A DNA stretch of 64,000 bases from Rhizodiscina lignyota (Eukaryota), in NCBI GenBank assembly GCA_010015805.1, contig ML978126.1, forward strand, positions 434,001-498,000. The letters run 5' to 3'. Shown here piece by piece: positions 27,935 to 57,207 of the stretch (positions are counted from its first letter, which is position 1; each line of letters opens with the position of its first letter). Below the pieces are notes generated by a model. The model was given only the letters and a program-made list of their open reading frames with translations. It ran no database searches and had not been told where the DNA came from. Both the position numbers and the translations under genes were made by a program.

Positions 27935-30900
27935 ATGGCGCCTCTTCCTATCAAGTTCACTGAGCTATTGCAGGTATGGACAAATAGTTACATACTTTGA
28001 AGAAGAATTAACTGACACATCGTGTTCCAGCTCTCCGCCATAGACATCCTCGTACGTTCATTGACAAACGGCTGACTGGCGCCGTTGTAGCTGCCTCAGT
28101 GTTCATAGTAAACTAACAGCTTGACAGCCATCCTCAATAGGTTTTAACAGCTGCGTAAGTCACGAGTATTTCATTTCTCTGAGACTGGACCTGTAACTGA
28201 CGTTGCCTTCACTAGACTCTCGAGTCCGACCACTTCATCTGCATCCGCCAAAAGGCCGACGAAACCGCGTCCCCTGAAGTCATCATAATCGATCTCAAAA
28301 ATGGCAACAACGTCATTCGCAGGCCAATCAAGGCCGACAACGCGATCATGCACTGGAACAAGCAGATTATTGCGCTCAAGGCACAATCAAGGACGTTGCA
28401 GATTTTCGACTTGGCTCAGAAACAGAAGCTCAAATCCGCAACCATGAACGAGGATGTGGTCTTCTGGAAGTGGTTCAGCGAGACAACGCTTGGTCTGGTT
28501 ACTGACACTGCGGTGTATCACTGGAACATCTTCGACCAGAATGCGGTACAGCCTCAGAAGATGTTTGATAGGAATGCAAATCTTCAAGTAAGCCAGCTTC
28601 GTGGATGAAACTGTCTCAGTCCTACTAATACACAGCGCGTTCAGGGCTGCCAGATCATCAACTATCGCGTAACGTCTGACGAACAATGGATGGTGGTTGT
28701 AGGCATCACACAGCAACAAGGCCGAGTCGTGGGCGCAATGCAGCTATACTCCGTTGCACGTGGCATTAGCCAGTCTATAGAAGGGCATGCCGCTGCATTT
28801 GGTAACATCCGCCTAGAGGGAGCTCCTGCCGACACGAAACTCTTTACTTTCGCTGTCCGCACGGCTAATGGCGCGAAGCTCCACGTTGTCGAGGTCGATC
28901 ACAACGACGCAAATCCACCATTCCAAAAGAAGAACGTCGATGTGTATTTCCCGGCTGAAGCAACCAATGACTTTCCAGTAGCGATGCAGGTGTCGGAGAA
29001 GTACAAGATAATTTATCTCGTCACGAAGTACGGTTTCATCCACCTCTACGACCTCGAAACCGGTACTTGCATCTTCATGAACCGTATATCAAGCGAGACC
29101 ATCTTCGTCACCGCACCGGATGAGGAATCGACGGGTATCGTGGGTGTCAACCGGAAGGGACAAGTTCTATCAGTCAGCGTTGATGAGAGCAACATCATTC
29201 CTTATTTGCTTCAAAACCCTGCCAATGCTGAATTGGCCTATAAATTAGCTTCTCGCGGAGGCCTACCAGGAGCAGACAACCTTTACCAACAGCGCTTTGA
29301 GGGCCTTTTGAGCTCCGGCCAGTATAGCGAGGCTGCCAAGACTGCTGCAAACTCTCCGCGTGGCTTCTTGCGTTCACAGCAGACCATAGACCGCTTCAAG
29401 CAAGTTCCGCAACAGCCAGGACAGATGAGCGTGATACTGCAGTATTTCGCTCTTTTGCTCGACAAGGGCAAGCTCAACAAGTACGAGACTTTGGAGCTCG
29501 TCCGTCCAGTCCTTGCCCAGAACCGCAAGCATCTCCTTGAAAAATGGCTGGGAGAGGGCAAACTCGAGTGCTCAGAGGAGCTGGGCGACATTGTCAGGCA
29601 GCATGACCTCGCTCTTGCCCTGCAAATCTACCTCCAGGCGAGAGCGCCCCAAAAGGTCATCGCCGCCTATGCAGAGCTTGGCCAGTTCGACAAGATCATC
29701 CCGTACTCGGCAGAGACTGGCTACAGCCCGGACTACGTTGTTTTGTTGCAGCACAGTAGGTAGCACTCCCCACTCTTCCCGCAATATGCTAACAGAAGCA
29801 TTCCAGTCGTTCGCAGGAACGCGGAGAAAGGAGCAGAATTCGCCACTGCTCTTGCGAAGAGCCCTCAAGGACCACTCATCGATATCGATCGTGTGGTCGA
29901 CATCTTCCAGTCGCAAGGCATGATCCAGCAAGCTACCGCATTCTTGCTCGACGTCTTGTCCGGCAACAAGCCAGAAGAGGGTCACTTGCAGACGAAATTG
30001 CTCGAGATGAATCTATTAAACGCTCCACAAGTAGCCGATGCCATCCTCGGAAACGAGATGTTCTCGCATTACGACAAGGCCAGAATTGCGCAGCTTTGCG
30101 AGAATGCCGGCTTACTCACTAGAGCTCTGGAACACAACGATGATCCGGCTGCGGTCAAGCGCATCATCGTCCAGACTGACAAGCTGCCTGAGGATTGGCT
30201 CGTTAACTACTTCGGACAGTTGACAGTCGACTTGTCCTTCGAGTGTCTTAACGAGATGCTTCGTGTCAATATTCGACAGAACCTGCAATCTGTTGTTCGC
30301 ATTGCACAGAAGTATTCTGATCTCCTTGGCCCTACTCGTATCATTGACCTGCTCGAGAAGTACAGAACGGCAGAGGGTTTGTACTTCTATCTCGGGGCCA
30401 TCGTCAATATCAGCGAGGACAAGGACGTACACTTCAAGTACATTGAAGCCGCCACAAAGATGGGTCAGCTGAACGAGGTTGAGCGTATCTGTCGAGACAG
30501 CAGTATGTCATTTCGTTTTCTTCTACTCACCCTTCTGCCCTTGGCTCCATCTGCGAAGGAGCTAGTTTCCAACCAGCGAAGTCTGCAAAGCAAGCTTCCT
30601 AGCATCGGTAGTTCCCATTCAAGATTATCAGGGAGTAGCTTGCCCGGCGGACGTGGGAAGATTTACTTCTCATTGCTACAAAGAAAGGATGCTGTTGCAC
30701 ATCTCGTGCGCTCGCTGGAAACTAGCTCCTCCATACACCCACTTTCTCGACTCTCTTCTTCTCCGTATCAACTCAGCAGCATTGCAACATTAACTGACAA
30801 CTCCTTCTTCAGACTTCTATGACCCAGAACGGGTGAAAAACTTCCTCAAGGAAGCGCATTTGACCGAGCAACTCCCCCTCATCGTTGTCTGCGACCGTTT

Positions 30901-33796
30901 CAACTTTGTCCACGACCTCATCCTTTTCCTCTACAAGAACCAGCAGTTCAAGTCCATTGAGGTGTACGTTCAGCGTATTAACCCTGGAAGGACGCCTGCT
31001 GTTATTGGTGGTCTCTTGGACGTCGATTGCGACGAGAATATCATCAAATCGCTGCTCGAATCTGTCAACCCTGCATCTATTCCGATCGATGACCTTGTTT
31101 CGGAGGTCGAGTCGCGCAACCGCCTTAAGTTGCTTCTTCCATTCCTGGAGCAGACTCTTGCGAGCGGCAATCAACAGCAAGCAGTCTACAACGCCCTTGC
31201 CAAGATATACATCGACAGGTAAACGACCAGCGCTGAGACACTTCGAGGACATCTGCTAACATTGTACAAGTAACAACAACCCGGAGAAGTTCTTGAAAGA
31301 GAACGATCAGTACGACACCTTAAAAGTTGGCAAATACTGCGAGAAACGTGATCCGAATCTGGCCTTCATCGCATACAGCAAGGGCGGCAATGACCTCGAG
31401 CTCATCAGCATCACTAACGAGAATGCGATGTTCCGCCCACAAGCACGTTACCTATTGGAGCGTGCTGACGCGCAGATCTGGGAGTATGTCCTCAGCGACA
31501 ACAATATCCACCGACGATCCTTGGTCGACCAGGTCATCTCCACCGCTGTGTAAGTCCTTAATTCATATTTTACTGGAATTTGGAGTGCTGATAACGTTCC
31601 AGGCCTGAAAGTTCCGAGCCGGAGAAGGTATCGACTGCCGTCAAGGCCTTTGTTGACGCCGATCTCCCCACGGAGCTCATCGAGCTCTTAGAAAAGATCA
31701 TTCTGGAGCCTTCTGCTTTCAGCGACAACTCAACCCTGCAAAACTTGCTTATGCTCACTGCAGCCAAGTCTGATCGTGGTCGTCTGCTGGGTTATATTCA
31801 ACAGCTCAACAACTACACTCCGGAAGAGATCGCGACGCAATGTATTGAACTCGGCATGTACGAGGAGGCCTTCGAGATCTACAAGAAGGACAACAACCAC
31901 GTGGAAGCCACCAACGTCTTGGTCGATCACATCGTGAGCATCGACAGAGCGCAGGAGTATGCAGACCGCGTCGATCTACCCGAAGTGTGGAGCAAGGTTG
32001 CAAAAGCGCAATTGGACGGCCTCCGCGTTACCGATTCGATCGAGTCATACATCCGTGCTAATGACCCATCCAACTATATCGAGGTTATCGAGATTGCAAC
32101 GCACGCCGGCAAGGATGAGGATCTTGTCAAGTATCTTAGAATGGCCCGCAAGACGTTACGTGAGCCGCCTATTGATACCGCACTGGCCTTCTGCTTCGCA
32201 CGTCTCAACCAGCTTGCTGAGCTCGAGGACTTCCTCCGTGCCACAAACGTGGCCGACGTTGAGGCGTCTGGTGACAAAGCATATGAAGAGGGTTTTCATG
32301 AAGCCGCGAAGATCTTCTACACAAGCATCTCTAACTGGGCCAAGCTTGCAACGACATTGGTGCATCTGGAGGACTACCAGGCTGCTGTAGAGTGTGCTCG
32401 CAAGGCCAACAGCACGAAGGTCTGGAAGCAGGTCAACGAGGCGTGCGTGGCAAAGAAGGAGTTCCGCTTAGCGCAAATTTGTGGTCTCAATCTCATTGTC
32501 CACGCCGAGGAGCTTTCCGACCTTGTTCGTCAATACGAATACAACGGCTACTTCGACGAGCTCATTGCGCTGCTTGAGGCTGGTCTTGGCCTCGAACGTG
32601 CGCATATGGGTATGTTCACAGAGCTTGGCATTGCGTTGTCCAAGTACCATCCAGACCGCGTGATGGAGCACCTGAGATTGTTCTGGTCGCGTATCAACAT
32701 CCCCAAGATGATCCGTGGATGCGAGGACGCGCACCTGTGGCCAGAGCTTGTCTTCTTGTACTCTCACTACGACGAGTGGGACAATGCCGCATTGGCTATG
32801 ATGGAGCGGGCTGCCGACGCCTGGGAGCATCATACCTTCAAGGACACTGTCGTCAAAGTTGCTAACCTCGAGATCTACTACCGCGCATTGAACTTCTACC
32901 TGCAGGAGCACCCAACTCTCATGACCGATCTCCTCCAGGCGTTGACACCTCGCATCGACGTCAACCGGGTTGTCCGTATCTTTGAGAAATCGGACAACAT
33001 TCCTCTCATCAAGCCGTTCATGCTTAATGTGCAGCCGCAGAACAAGCGTGCCGTCAACCATGCGATCAATGCACTGCTCATCGAGGAAGAGGACTACAAG
33101 ACTCTTCGTGACTCTGTCGAGAATTACGACAACTACGACTGGGCAGAGCTTGCTCAGCAGCTCGAGAAACACGATCTTGTGTTCTTCAGACAGATTGCGG
33201 CGAACATCTGGAGGAAGAACAAGCGTTGGGATAAGAGCATTGCGCTGAGCAAGCAGGACAAGCTGTTCAAGGATGCTATTGAGACTGCAGCAATGAGCGG
33301 AAAGTCTGAGATTGTGGAAGAGCTGCTGAGATACGTAAGTGACTCTTATTGGACCCGACGGAGCCGCCAGCTGATAATGGTTTTAGTTCGTCGACATTGG
33401 CAGCCGCGAGTGCTATGTTGGCATGCTGTACGCCTGCTACGATCTCATTCGACCGGATGTGATTCTTGAAGTGTCATGGCGCAATGGCCTAAACGACTTC
33501 ACAATGGTATGCCAATTCGATACCCAATTCAATAATGCAATTTCACTAATACATGCTAGCCCTTCATGATCAACATGCTCAGCCAACAGGTTGCCACCAT
33601 CGAGATGCTGAAGAAGGACAACGAGGAGCGCAAGGTCCGTGAAGCATCGCAACAGACGGAAGAAGACAACGCACCGATCATGGGCGGTACCCGGCTTATG
33701 CTCACACAGGGCCCGGTTGCCCAGGCACCGAGTCCCGCGCCTTTTGCGCAGCCAAACGGAATCACTCCCCAGATGACGGGTTTCTCCAGGTTCTAA
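27935..33796 (+). CDS. CHC1: Clathrin heavy chain
   Basis: [13 protein letters not shown] start, [33 protein letters not shown] and [15 protein letters not shown]; about 10 GT-AG introns. Confidence 0.99.
30557..30730 (+). ncRNA. Putative structured intronic RNA element in the clathrin heavy-chain intron (30503-30812)
   Basis: Perfect 15-bp inverted repeat AGGAGCTAGTTTCCA (30557-30571) / TGGAAACTAGCTCCT (30716-30730) enclosing further nested complementary segments. Confidence 0.55.
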
Positions 33797-49494: not shown

Positions 49495-50526
49495 ATGACG
49501 TCGACCACCTGGCGCCCGTTCTCCATCCTGCGCTCAGGACCTGTCCCTGTTCCGCAGTGGACACTCGGCCTCCGCGCCTTACAAGCGCTTTTCGCAATCA
49601 TCATCATCGGCCTTTTGGGGTACAGTCTACACTATCATGGCGGCGCTGCAGTACGTCCACTCCCAGTCCCCAAAGTTGCTCGAGTACTCTACTGACGTTT
49701 GAAACCCCGCCCACAGCTCCAAGCACCATGCATCACGCAGATATTCATCGCCATCATAACGCTCCTGATCATCCTTCCGCTCACCACGGCAATCGCGCCT
49801 TTCCAGCAGAGGTTCTACGATCCCCGTACGGCGCTTGTGTTGGATTGGTTTGCGTGCTTGTTCTGGCTCGCGAGCACCGCAGCGCTGGCGAGCTATCTGG
49901 ATATAACCAGCGCCTCGTTCGGCGTGGTCAATGACTTTGGCATCCAGGGAATAAACGCCAATTTCCTTTCGGGATGGAAGACTGCGTGGGACTGCGGCGT
50001 CGCTGCTGCCGTGTTCGGCGCGATTGAGTTGTAAGTCCGGCCGTTCCACAATCACTCCGTTCAAATGAGCTCACAGCGCTACAGCCTCCTCTTCGCAATC
50101 CAGACCCTGGTCTTCGCGTACCACTACCACCTCTTCCTCACCAACACAATCCCCATGTCCAGCACCACCGTCCCTTACGGCGTTCCCCCGCCGCGCAGAA
50201 ACAAAGTCACCGTCAGTGCCCCACAGGCCACCGACCCCGCAGCCCTCGAAGCCGGCGTGGCTGCCCCTGCCTACGCTCCTAACGGGATGATGCACGAAGT
50301 CCATCCCGCTCATCGAGATGTGATCGCACCGGTCCCGCCGCCCCCACCACCGCAGGGTAGCGTGCTTGCGGGCGCCGGCGGAGGAGCGGGCGGAGTGGAG
50401 AAGCCAGTTTCGCACTTGCCGGCTGGTGGGAATGCTGCGGGCGGAATGCCCGTTACTGGGGCGCCGTTTGCTAGGGATGCGGAGAAGGAGGCCGCGCCGT
50501 ATCCGGTTGAGGGGGGAGTTCTTTAA
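49495..50526 (+). CDS. MARVEL-like four-TM membrane protein
   Basis: LRALQALFAIIIIGL, LDWFACLFWLASTAALA and AAAVFGAIE hydrophobic segments; introns 49651-49715 and 50031-50083; Pro/Gly-rich tail. Confidence 0.8.
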
Positions 50527-50927: not shown

Positions 50928-52732
50928 TCAAACAATGTGAACTGTTTCAAAGACCTTGCTCCTTGGGTAGCCAAATCCCGTGCTGTATCCCAACAACTGG
51001 TAGAAGGGGAAATTGTGACTCTCCGAAAATCGAGGCTGTACACGCTTTAAAATGAAGGGCGCGAATTCAGACGTTAGGCTTGCGGTGAATACATCACAGT
51101 CTTGCTCAGATACACTTGATGGGACCCAAAAAATCGTGCATTGCTGACGGCCTGTTGGATAGCGCACGAGACACAACTTGCGATTTAACAAGTTCTCTTG
51201 AATAAGCTCTGCAACTTGTAACTGTGAATCAGAAAGTGTGACATCCATAGGAGGGTGTTGGAGCATTTGGTCCACCCAATGCACGTGATCCCAGGTCAAA
51301 TCTGTATATTCAGTGATAAAGCAATGGTCTTCTGCAGGAGAGTGTTCCTCGGGATTGGGAATCTTGGACGGAATGGCCAGAAAGGAGACGAATTCGGATT
51401 TCTTGGCGTTGTCATATGTCTTCGTAATATGCGAATATATTAACACCAATTGGTTGAGCATAACCCAAGGGAGTGATGCCTCCAAAGTGCGAGCTTGCGA
51501 GCGTTGTACTGCGGATGCGACGCACGACAGCAATGTGCGTTGTATCTGCAAAGGTGAAGTTTCCTTTGTGAACGTGCTAGTCGCCCAGCTGATGTTGCCC
51601 ACTCGGACTACCTCCCATTTTAACAGCATTTGGCCTTCTAATTGTGGTTGAGAGAACTCTCCAGGCTTGAGCTCTACCCACGCCAGTGTTCGACCGGCAC
51701 CTGACTCAGGTCGTTTGGTGGCCTAGGAACGCACCAATCCGGCGCCCATAATGGCCATTGGTTCGCATACCTCGTAGAGTCTCGTCTATAGATGGTCGCA
51801 TAATGTAAAAGCTCAAGTCCAATACCGTTCCGTATGCAGCTGCGCGAGAATTGTAGAAAAAGCTCTTGAGTAGGCAGAGTATAATCGAGGTTGAGAGAAT
51901 GTTTTTCTTTGGCTATCCCAAGTAATGCAAAGATTCGATCGCGGTCATCGGAGCACTTAGCTTGATGGAACTTGTGCAGAAGATCCAGTATCGAATATGG
52001 ATGTGGCCGCAGGTCGCAAATGAAGCGGGCTCAGCCAAGGACTCCTCGTTTCTGAGGATCCAAAGAGAGATCCTTGATATGGTTCAAGCCAGCGCCGAAG
52101 ATAGTCCATTTCATCTTCAGCTGACCGCAATGTATGATGATATCGTGGCCAAGCGCAACTTCTTGTAGAATCCACCTTCTTTCGAACCAGGGGACGCTGA
52201 GAAGTCGACCAGTCTCGCTGACTATTGCGGTATGTGCGCTGCCGTTCAAAATATATTGCTTCATCGACTTGTCCATGCCATACCGCTCCAGCGCTTCAAG
52301 AGCCATAAAGAAGGTCGAGGTATGTTGGCTTGATTCCCCCAGCCAAATATGAACCTTCCTTGAGTGGCAGAATATGCCGCCCATGTTAAGCACCTGGATG
52401 CTTTTCTCCTTCTCATCAGATTGATTTATGCTGACAGAATCGATCCATAGTGCTCGCTTAGTATATTGTTTTCGCAGATACCGCAGAAAGAGATCGACTG
52501 GAGGCGTAATGTTCATACACGCACTACCGTCACAAAAGAGCGCCTTTGAAAACTCTGGTTGTCCCCAAGCATACGAGACGGCTTCGTAACGCTCATGATG
52601 TAGATTCATATCATTACGTCGTCGATGTACGATTTCACAATGGAGAGGCTCCGAGAAGTCGAGTGCTGGTGCAAGGAGGAGCAGCCTGATATCGTCGTAG
52701 TTCTCCAGTTTGCGGTACTGGTAAGGGGGCAC
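50928..52732 (-). pseudogene. HET-domain (HET-6-like) gene, disrupted
   Basis: IRLLLL, YEAVSYAWG, LWIDSVSINQSD, EKSIQVLNMGGIF and WFERRWILQEV motifs. An in-frame TGA at 52031-52033 precedes CSDDRDRIFALLG and WAPDW; a frame change follows near 51680-51720; the start codon is GTG. Confidence 0.8.
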
Positions 52733-54698
52733 GGTCGGCAGAAGCTCGATGTCTGGCGAAAGAACACTTTTCGGCCCTGGACGCGTTTCCGCGAAAACTT
52801 CTTAGACATTGTTTGGCGGGATGCGCTGGAAGCGAGGTGGTGAGGATCTCAGCCTTGCGTTTGGCTGCATTTCGATGGTGCATGTTCGATTCTACTGGTC
52901 AAGTCAGTCGGAATGGGGTCCTTAGGGCATGCTACACCTTTCGCTATAAACATGGGCTCAAATGTGTGGTGAGGCGTTAGTGTGCAGTCGTGAACACTAT
53001 CAATGAAGCTTTCTTCATGAGGGAGTAGGCGAGCAAGAGCGCAATTTGCCGATGTTCAGAGCGATGGCGTTCGTATGACGAGAACATTACGATACATCTA
53101 CATAAAATGGTTTCATGCCTTGGATTGCTTCGAGCTTTCCGGAGTTACTTCCGCCGAGCCGCTATATGAGATCTCGCGCGCGCGTTCTTCTGCTTGCATA
53201 TTATAATCTACTGCAGCTTCCTTATGCGTGTATGCGGTTCTGCACCAAAAATACCTGGAGCATCCATCCAACACCGTGGTGGCCATTACAGCAAATGCCT
53301 TCAGAACGAACGAAATTCACCAACACCAGACTTGTATTATCAAGGAGCCAGTTTGTGGCGAGCGAACAGTCTACAAAGTCACTCTATTGAGTTGCTTTTC
53401 AACGCCTCAGAAGCTTCCCCGTCGTTAGGGAGTAGCTTGCCAGGCCTGCCTTAGAAGATCTGGTCCTCGTTGTCACGAAAAGAGATGGTGCTGCGGTCTC
53501 ATATGCTCATGAGAAACTAGCTTCTTCATGCTCCTTCGCACTCCTTCGTATTCCTTCACACTCTTTCACACTTCTTCGTGCGTCTGTCTCCCTTCATCGG
53601 CACCCTGAGCTCATCGCTATCACTGAAGATAACCCAACGAGAGAAGAGTTTCCTAAATTCCAGGAGTTTCAATCTGGAGAGCGCAGGTCGTTTCCAACCC
53701 TGGCAACTATGCAGCATGAATGAGGCTCGATAGCTGTGGCTGCTCTCGTATTTTTTTGATCTAAAGAGGAGAAAGAAGAGTTGAGGCCTTCCGCGGCGAG
53801 AAAACTTCGTGTGCCAAGCCACGGCACGTGCAGAAGCATTAGGTAAGCGCCCCAACCAGCACCCCAGCCAGCACCCCAACCTGCTACCTAGGTTTGTCGA
53901 CAGAGATCAACGCCGCAACGAATGCTGAATTTTTGCTTTCCCATCTCTCCAGTCTCAGAGAAGCAGGTTGGAGAGCGATCGAGAACACCGCCAAGGATTT
54001 TCAGGGCTCCTGGGATCTTCGATCTGCACTTGACAAGGTCCGCTCTATTACCGTAGCATGGCATTCCAATGCACTTAACGCCCGGACTGCCTTCCGGACG
54101 CCCACATGCGCAAAGTTGATTGGACAGGTGGCAAAATGCTCAAGCTTCCTGTTCCAAAGGGATACCCCGAGCGATGCACGTACGATGATCCAGATATTGT
54201 CGGCCGCAAGTTATCAGCTTTTTCTGCAACACTACCAGGGTTCTTCCTCGTGCATATGCACTGCCGTTCGCTATGAGAACAATTCTAGAACTTTTGATGG
54301 GCGCAGGTACTACAGCGACGTCACACTACGGCGACAGGCCCGATCGTTATGAAATCGTCGATCAGCTTTCCTTGGGATGATGTGCATGGCTAGCACCCTA
54401 CCTTGAAACACGAGAGGCCGACTAGGCGCGCTTTCGCATACATAGGGAAAGTTACAATATCAAACGACGTCATATAGACGCGCTCTCCACCACACACCCT
54501 TCAAACCAACGGAACCGAGGATCGACACACAATGGCTCTAACAAGTGCGATTGACACATCGAACTTCATTTTTCCCGCTGACAAGCTTCGGTACATGCCC
54601 CGATATGTAGTGGGAAATGTTGAAATATCTTTAACATTCTCATACTTTACACTGACCATACCCGCTGGTCGCAAGTTAGGCCAGGAGCGATAGGCAGG

Positions 54699-57207
54699 AT
54701 GAGTCGGCCAATTCTACCAGTGCCATCTCTGAACAAGAGTCCAAGAAGTGGTTCCGGCTCTCCATTGCCACCGAACGCGCCAGGAGGAGATCAACAAAAG
54801 CGACAATACACCAAGCGAGGAGCCATTTCGAAGATAGCTTGTCGCAGTTGTAGGAGACGGAAGACCAAATGCAACTCGCAACGGCCGACTTGCTCGAACT
54901 GCGCTGGGAGGGCGGAGCATTGTATCTACGATTACGACGAGTCTGACCGCAGCCTCACCTTCCTTCGAGAAAATGTGGAAAACCTCGCGGAGGAACGCAC
55001 TGCCCTCGAGTCTATGCTCAGAACCCTTCAAACGGACTCGGAAGATGCAGCTTCTGAGATATTCCGCCGATTGCGGACCGGAACAGACCTTTACACATTA
55101 GCCCACCAGGTCCATGCGAGTAAAGCTCTAACAGAGGTAGGAGCTGCTGCCAGCTCTGGAAGTCCGAGTAGTATGTGCTTCGACCAGCATGTTGTAACTT
55201 GCTGGTCCAATTGCCCCAAATTCTAGACTAGACTAAACTAGGCCAGGTACCCTCTCTAGGTTGGACCAATACGAGCAGCTAGTTCGTGCTATCACGTTTA
55301 GCACACCCACCGAGCTGGAGGAAATAGTACGTCGTCTTCGGACCAAGCCCGATCCTGAGCCTATTCTTTCAGCAATTCGGACGAAATCGCTGTTAACTCC
55401 ACTTCGGCCCGCTGACTCTACGTCAAGTCTCGAAGGGGAGTACTCTGATCGTACGCAGGCCTTTCGCCTCGTCAAAAGCACCGGTTCCCATAATGCGTTG
55501 CCGCCATCAGCGGATCCAGAGCGATCCGAGACTCCAAGACTTCACACGTACCAGCGTTGGACTTCTATTACCCATGATGAGGGCTTCATTGAGCACCTAT
55601 TTCTCATTTACTTTTCCTGGCAACACACCTTTTTCCAAAACTTTCCCGAGGAGCTGTTTCGAGCGGATTATGCCAGTGGACAGACGGCATATTGTTCAAG
55701 TCTCCTAGTTAACTCGATATGCGCTGCTGGGTGCTTGCTGTCAAGAAAGCCAGAGGCTCGACAAAATCCAGAGGACTTCAGTACCGCGGGAGTACATTTC
55801 TATTCCGCTGCGCTGGCAGAGCTTGGAGAATTTCGAAGGCCGTCAATATGTAGAGTTGCTGCATTGGCACTATTAGCCCACTTTGAAGGTGCTCGTGGTC
55901 ATCTTAGGACCATGTGGGACTTTACTGGGCGCAGTGGACGAATGGCACTCGATCTCTCACTTCATCTAAGAGAAAGCAAGCTTGACGGCGCCGATGATGG
56001 GGGAGAAACGACGTATGAAGAGGCAAACATGCATACGTTTTGGGGTTGTTTCATAGCTGATCAGTAAGATCAAATCACTGCCGTTTGGTTACTGTTAAAC
56101 TAACGCACTGCCAGAGTCACGAGTTTTACATTCGGCCGGTTACCGCAGATTCCGATCAATTCAGTCACTACTCGACGTCCCTCGATCGATCGAGAAGTCG
56201 ATGCGAGAACATGGATTGCGTACTATGACAGTTCTGAAGGTGTCTCCCCAGGTGGCTGTTCGACGACATTCAAGGAAGTGATTTCCCTTTGTGTTATCGT
56301 CAATTCAACCTTAACAATGTTCTTCAACCCGGCACGAACAATCAGCGGTACCCTGCTCCTAACGGAGTACAACAAATATCTAAAGTGGAAATACGCTCTT
56401 CCAAAAATCCTCACACCCACTGGCCGCGCACCTCCACATATCCTATGCGCACATCTTCTGTGGCATGCTGCTGTCTTACTTCTCTTCCGACCGTTTCTGA
56501 AGGCCAAAGTCATCGAATCTGAGGTTGTCCCTCAGGACATTTGTCGCCAATCCGCAAATGCTATATCGGAACTCTTCGCGAATCATCGGTCATATTACGA
56601 TCTTACAGGCATCTATGCATTTCAGATTCAATGTCTGCTCACGGCCTGTACAATCCATATCATTCACATACCCGCCATTGCTTCAACAGAGCACTTCATA
56701 GACGCATGCAATAACCTACACGACATGGTAGATCGCAGCAAGTGGGCGAAGTCAAGTCTGGACGAAATCAAACGGCTAGTCAGGAAATGGAACCGTGTCC
56801 TTCCTGGTGATGCTGAGGTAGCATTATATCGCGACGAGCAGAGATCACCAAGCCTAGACACACTCCCCTCGATCATCGGAAACTTACAAGCGCCCTCCAA
56901 AGGAATAGCAACATCAAGCACCCCAATGGATGTTCCAGAGCTACCCGAGAAGCGAGCCGCTTCTACTCTGCCAGCCCAGGCGATACAGATGACAAAGCGT
57001 CCTCGTGTGGCAGAAGCGCGAACGCCTCAGCTATTTGCCCCCAGCGAAAGTCAGCCAGCTCCTTTACCAGGCCCTATGCCAGACGGGCTGGACCCGGATT
57101 TTGACGATGAAGACATGACGCTTGAATTTCCCGGGCTCGATTTCTCCAAGGACGACATGTTTAATCCGTTCATGGGCTTTGAAGGTGGTTTCACGGAACC
57201 AGGTTAG
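54699..57207 (+). CDS. Zn(II)2Cys6 fungal transcription factor with middle homology region
   Basis: CRSCRRRKTKCNSQRPTCSNCAGRAEHC; YFSWQH, MALDLSLH and TFWGCFIADQ motifs; introns ~55171-55241 and 56064-56114. A possible extra upstream exon starts at ATG 54532. Confidence 0.92.

Follow-up and report, generated by a model that had tools for sequence, protein, structure and literature searches.

Overall, after analyzing the sequence, copy number and evolutionary setting of an outsized clathrin heavy-chain intron in Rhizodiscina lignyota, we consider it likely that a MITE-like relic, non-autonomous and ending in inverted repeats (~174-188 bp), landed in an intron that already existed, and that the conspicuous hairpin of this intron is a by-product of the element's two ends. 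The sequence is a dispersed repeat whose boundaries fall at the inverted repeat, and its inner structure is not preserved from copy to copy. We infer that the element moved by cut-and-paste transposition. A preliminary description of this DNA had offered three origins for the structure, namely, an intron-hosted noncoding RNA, a splicing-control structure for clathrin and a small MITE-like insertion. Our best reading is that the feature represents mobile-DNA debris of the everyday sort that genomes accumulate, rather than an RNA gene in its own right.

The intron was analyzed within a 64,000-nucleotide stretch of genomic DNA, hereafter called the window, and all positions are those of the window. 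The clathrin gene lies on the plus strand, and the exons on either side of the intron match the Clathrin repeat (PF00637) with E values of 6.5e-41 and 4.3e-20. The spliceosomal intron itself (30503-30812, plus strand, 310 nt, phase 1) was placed by its GTATGT...CAG boundaries together with frame continuity. It interrupts the Asn codon of ...CRDS-N-FYDPE, and the spliced product reads ...ERICRDS, followed by the split Asn and FYDPERVK.... The donor GTATGT starts at 30503, the terminal CAG ends at 30812, and TTAACTGAC contains the motif CTGAC at 30794-30798, which is the likely branch site on the plus strand as judged from its sequence, 15 nt upstream of the 3′ splice site. This motif fits the fungal branch-site consensus CTRAY. 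Six further introns of the same gene, placed by splice signals and frame continuity, measured 57, 51, 52, 53, 52 and 53 nt. Therefore, against neighbors of 51-57 nt, the 310-nt intron is outsized, at approximately six times the usual length, which agrees with what had been claimed for it; the comparison covers these six introns, all outside the 5′ end of the gene.

The reading frame of the upstream exon was also said to stay open through the intron, and we found that it does run across all 310 nt, with the first stop at 30820-30822. However, an open frame as long as the intron also arose in 118 of 5000 dinucleotide shuffles, and we judged it to be a mild, after-the-fact oddity and a weak coincidence. 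Retention of the intron would append ~106 unrelated residues and truncate the protein.

The composition of the intron changes sharply along its length. The two flanks that separate the element from the splice sites are 77% and 68% pyrimidine, as the preliminary description had noted in general terms, and the element between them is even in composition (A26 C26 G24 T24). An element of even composition within a pyrimidine-rich intron is the picture expected of foreign DNA inserted into a typical intron. The element is framed by a perfect 15-bp inverted repeat, whose 5′ arm occupies 30557-30571 and whose 3′ arm occupies 30716-30730, exactly as first described. With 91% complementarity, the arms lengthen to 22 nt (30557-30578 and 30709-30730). 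By a rough count, the chance expectation for an inverted repeat of 15-mers in 310 nt is ~5e-5. When one mismatch was allowed, the arm motif AGGAGCYAGTTT occurred at five sites against 0.58 expected, and four of these fall on the arms of the two element copies that the window contains. The fifth site (50399-50410) has one mismatch and is accompanied by neither a partner arm nor any other homology to the element; judged by its sequence, it is probably a chance match and possibly a lone relic end.

The predicted fold of the element is strong. The 191-nt stretch 30550-30740, selected on account of its inverted repeat, folded at -69.0 kcal/mol (z = -4.03), and none of 200 shuffles was as stable. 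In contrast, the fold of the whole 310-nt intron was unremarkable (z = -1.28): out of 100 shuffles, 10 performed equally well. The motif pairs previously reported as nested inside the stem (TGCAA/TTGCA, AGCATC/GATGCT, GTAGC/GCTAC and TTCCC/GGGAG) are all in the sequence, and so are the letters of the reported GTGGGAAG-ATTTA-CTTCTCAT hairpin, although the minimum-energy fold contains partly different inner pairings. The ACA triplet reported to follow the stem is present at 30735-30737. For the antisense strand of the element, the predicted fold was more stable still (-76.3 kcal/mol, z = -4.40). Since the antisense fold is at least as good as the sense fold, the symmetry is a property of the DNA and is not tuned for the transcript.

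A structured noncoding RNA hosted by the intron, whether of snoRNA type or not, or a switch dedicated to clathrin splicing would account for the strong fold of 30550-30740, for the ACA after the stem and for an exon frame that remains open through the intron (as in 118/5000 shuffles). We consider this explanation exceedingly improbable. The Rfam search that had been recommended, run on both strands of 30300-31000, returned 0 matches at E values up to 10, H/ACA and C/D snoRNA families included, and the better fold of the antisense strand also argues against it. A snoRNA was examined as a candidate and rejected: the sequence has neither the two-hairpin layout of H/ACA RNAs nor C/D boxes, and it has no Rfam match. 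The remaining evidence against a noncoding RNA or a switch comes from other copies of the element and from related introns, since the sequence is multicopy, occurs in intergenic DNA as well and is absent from 22 of 22 related introns.

A diverged, intergenic second copy of the element is located in the window at 53342-53527. When the intron was compared with the 64-kb window by blastn, a second site was found at 53427-53529 (E = 3e-5, over 105 nt), and a collinear end-to-end alignment, together with this match, defined the full copy. The homology between the two copies runs from arm to arm, starting at 30556 in copy 1, and there is none beyond. In total, 114 of the 182 aligned positions are identical (63%). 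The blocks common to both copies include the arm sequence, the stretch adjoining the 5′ arm and a conserved inner core of 15 nt (30630-30644) that is matched exactly at 53427-53441. When the two copies were combined into a profile, it found only these copies in the window, and the next best match had an E value of 0.27. The differences between the copies comprise 43 transitions and 25 transversions. RIP was considered as the cause of this transition excess and set aside, the excess being too little to support such a claim.

Copy 2 lies between a minus-strand HET-domain gene (PF06985) and a plus-strand Zn2Cys6 gene (PF00172). Local open reading frames across the copy had no Pfam match, and no recognizable gene or intron is present there. 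The HET-domain gene (52034-52801, minus strand) and the Zn2Cys6 transcription-factor gene (54624-55226, plus strand) are divergent and separated by a spacer of ~2 kb, in which the copy sits ~540 nt from the upstream end of the HET open reading frame. Directly 3′ of the 3′ arm of copy 2 is a tandem array (53531-53578) consisting of 4.8 units of 10 nt with 76% matches. The reverse complement of the array unit equals 30552-30561, a segment that overlaps the 5′ arm of copy 1 and reaches just outside it. Therefore, the true ends of the element may extend a few bases past the 15-bp arms and may carry a repeated terminal motif.

The structure of copy 1 is poorly preserved in copy 2. The arms of copy 2 are degenerate (over the corresponding 12 nt, one pair is a wobble and one is mismatched), and they fall below the 7-nt exact seed of the repeat finder. 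Its predicted fold is no better than those of shuffles (z = -1.04). At the aligned columns, copy 2 could form 35 of the 64 minimum-energy pairs of copy 1. Only one change is compensatory, while 23 one-sided and six two-sided changes break pairs. In addition, the alignment shows no ACA in copy 2 to match the one that follows the stem in copy 1. The inner helices are not kept, with one compensatory pair of 64, and the option of a noncoding RNA in the preliminary description found no support in Rfam, the antisense fold, the 35/64 pairs or the lost ACA.

Further copies were counted in one public contig run (34 Mb, uniform depth), whose contigs were mapped onto 30350-30950 at a likeness of at least 80%. 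The run is possibly the window's own source, so it does not independently confirm the window, but it still counts copies. In total, 14 records were placed. One spans the whole stretch without a difference, and the 13 others are further contigs that match inside bins 30539-30748 only and never the splice-site flanks; at a likeness of at least 80%, these flanks are single-copy in the contig set. The matched pieces of these other copies are 38-115 nt long. All contig depths in the run fall between 146 and 157, and this equal depth of ~150 indicates that all placed contigs belong to one genome. Five contigs stop matching at 30730, two start at 30550, and one piece reaches 30737. Past 30730 and 30550, these contigs continue into sequence that is unlike the window and unlike that of each other. 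Two contigs hold both ends of the element in collinear order, with a middle that is missing or too diverged. The depth peaked over the core (1391 against a baseline of 151, bin 30623-30643) and was nearly as high over the 3′ arm (1309 against 151, bin 30707-30727), which corresponds to ~8 extra contigs at each place. Both of these deepest parts, core and 3′ arm, belong to the blocks that copy 2 has in common with copy 1. Across the contigs, no letter differences were listed in 30707-30730, although such a listing may omit differences close to the end of a match. Additionally, a pattern scan of metagenomes with the core and the 3′ arm gave 0 matches.

From the contig match limits, the homology with copy 2 and the composition, we placed the MITE-like element at 30550-30737 at its widest and at 30557-30730, the outer limits of the perfect arms, at its narrowest. 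When set against the general definition of a MITE, as excerpted from PMC5172404, the element is a short noncoding unit (174-188 bp, with copy 1 in an intron and the open reading frames of copy 2 lacking a Pfam match). Inverted repeats stand at the limits of the unit, as the homology ends at the arms or no more than 7 nt from them, and dispersed copies are present in one genome, with two in the 64-kb window and 13 further contigs. The suggestion of a small MITE-like insertion is therefore the one that gained support, from copy 2 and from the 13 contigs that match only the part bounded by the inverted repeat. The preliminary description had added that dispersed copies with target-site duplications would identify a MITE; the dispersed copies were found, but the two window copies share no target-site duplication. 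No direct repeat of at least 3 nt occurs at equal offsets flanking both copies, and the copies are old (63% identity).

We then placed the intron in its evolutionary setting. When metagenomes were scanned with the exon downstream of the intron, they yielded 80 fungal loci with 81-90% identity, 78 of which contain both exons. The majority of these (56/78) have no intron at the clathrin site and read straight through it. In 13 of the 78, a phase-1 intron of 50-113 nt occupies precisely the same site as in the window. In a 72-row tree, the window falls in a 23-row clade, and its three nearest rows (L002, L007 and L001) are without an intron at the site; the exact-site introns all fall in the other, distant clade. 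An old intron that has been lost many times is the simplest reading of this distribution, although the intron may instead have been gained separately in the lineage of the window. Neither the 13 exact-site introns nor the nine displaced ones described below contain the element (0/22). When the element was searched for in the 80 related clathrin loci, no match was significant, and the best nhmmer matches (E = 0.57 and 0.92) were both off the intron site.

By eye, nine of the 78 loci carry introns that are offset by a few bases around locus position 1497, which corresponds to 30502/30813 in the window. The offsets are -3 in L011, -2 in L019, L052, L055 and L059, +4 in L018 and L048, and +7 in L078, and the intron of L054 lies farther downstream and looks like a GC-AG intron. 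This tight cluster of distinct clathrin intron positions suggests sliding or repeated gain. Several intron positions within ~10 nt of one clathrin codon may be relevant to the study of intron gain, loss and sliding.

The same distribution might be taken to mean that the intron is young and was made by inserted DNA, introner-like or transposon-derived, with the repeat as its recognizable middle. The 56 of 78 related loci that lack an intron at the site, the three nearest tree rows among them, are compatible with such an origin. Moreover, the intron is much longer than regular introns and has a stably folding middle, both of which are described as features of introner-like elements in the excerpted text of PMC3609843. 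However, the other copies match 30539-30748 only, and copy 2 resides in no recognizable gene or intron. Additionally, the 13 loci of the distant clade share the site and the phase, as expected of an old intron that has often been lost. Therefore, we regard a young intron as quite improbable.

In the model that we prefer, an old non-autonomous element with terminal inverted repeats would have inserted into an existing clathrin intron and lengthened it from about 120-135 nt to its present 310 nt; removing the element from the intron would leave about 122-136 nt. The 15-bp stem, which is perfect, would represent the two element ends, and the multibranch interior would be ordinary for a sequence of this kind. 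In the transcript, the arms would pair, with 54 nt between donor and stem and a further 66 nt from the stem to the branch A (30797), and this pairing would cut the path from donor to branch point from ~294 nt to ~120 nt. The hairpin may therefore incidentally shorten the distance that separates the splice site from the branch point to this extent (~294 to ~120 nt), which would make it understandable that a genome with introns of ~50 nt tolerates the insertion. Splicing control as a side effect of the stem is conceivable, and the present data show no sign of it.

It could also be argued that the stem, while of the same transposon origin, was co-opted in the manner of a yeast zipper stem and selected to remain intact, as a 310-nt intron would otherwise splice poorly in a fungus with introns of ~50 nt. 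The intronic copy does have a perfect 15-bp stem, whereas in the intergenic copy the corresponding 12 nt include one wobble and one mismatch, and the stability of its fold is that of shuffled sequence (z = -1.04). However, one intronic copy set against one intergenic copy is an anecdote. The arms are also the best-conserved part in ~8 other contigs, with no differing letters listed in 30707-30730, and this conservation across other contigs makes an intact stem a trait of the family for which no local selection is needed. Furthermore, the symmetry is fully Watson-Crick and the antisense strand folds better, neither of which gives any indication of tuning on the RNA strand, and the linker of ~120 nt exceeds the 42-85 nt that define yeast zipper stems in the excerpt of PMC12350175. 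Co-option of the stem thus appears unlikely to us. We hold a broader idea to be similarly doubtful, namely, that the introns of a short-intron fungus grow mainly by capturing hairpin-forming mini-transposons, whose end pairing is then selected to loop out the extra RNA. If it were true, the clathrin intron would exemplify a rule that holds throughout the genome, in which such inserts are tolerated because the stem restores a short effective distance from the splice site to its branch point.

On the favored reading of a MITE-like insertion, an odd-looking intron of an essential gene is explained as mobile-DNA debris, and one candidate noncoding RNA is removed. Taken alone, the element in the clathrin intron matters little, and its value as a data point is modest. 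It bears on how fungi with introns of ~50 nt tolerate occasional long ones, to which looping out by inverted ends is a possible answer, and on the frequency of MITE-like elements within the introns of housekeeping genes.

Several known systems resemble the clathrin intron in part. In Saccharomyces cerevisiae, zipper stems (RPS17B and others) are defined by a total linker of 42-85 nt, as far as the excerpt of PMC12350175 describes them. The clathrin intron likewise has a stem between donor and branch site, of 15 bp, which is separated by 54 nt from the donor and by 66 nt from the branch A (30797), but its linker of 54 + 66 = ~120 nt lies outside the range given in that excerpt. Unlike the yeast stems, that of the clathrin intron is built of transposon ends and not of intron-specific sequence, and its pairing is a prediction only. 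The symmetrical sister (stw)introns of Hypoxylaceae have terminal inverted repeats of 45-55 nt, and no flanking duplications were found for them, according to the available text of PMC8469720. They are similar to our case in being introns of fungi that are strongly symmetrical internally and have related copies that proliferate. However, in the (stw)introns of that text the repeats form the ends of the intron and each copy is itself an intron, whereas in the clathrin intron the repeat is internal and one copy is intergenic.

Introner-like elements, found in Dothideomycetes and other fungi, are also similar in appearance, as a multicopy sequence in an over-long intron with a stable predicted structure is also typical of them in the part of PMC3609843 at hand. 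In the same excerpt, however, the repeated unit of an introner-like element is an intron with donor, branch point and acceptor. In contrast, the element described here is separated by 47-54 nt from the donor and by 57-64 nt from the branch site, and one of its copies is intergenic. No match with a likeness of at least 80% was found outside 30539-30748, and nothing at copy 2 aligns with the flanks, so that no complete intron is repeated. As its repeated unit carries no splice signals, the element is not an introner-like element in the sense of the excerpt from PMC3609843.

The MITEs of filamentous fungi provide a further comparison. No TA or other target-site duplication was found around the two element copies, which would set them apart from these MITEs. 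The terminal sequence of the element is not known to fit any superfamily signature, and no matching transposase is known. The mimp elements of Fusarium oxysporum are an example of a fungal MITE and are mobilized by the Tc1-like impala. Like such MITEs, the element in the clathrin intron is ~180 bp long and noncoding and has terminal inverted repeats, and its copies are many, dispersed and diverged and lie in or beside genes.
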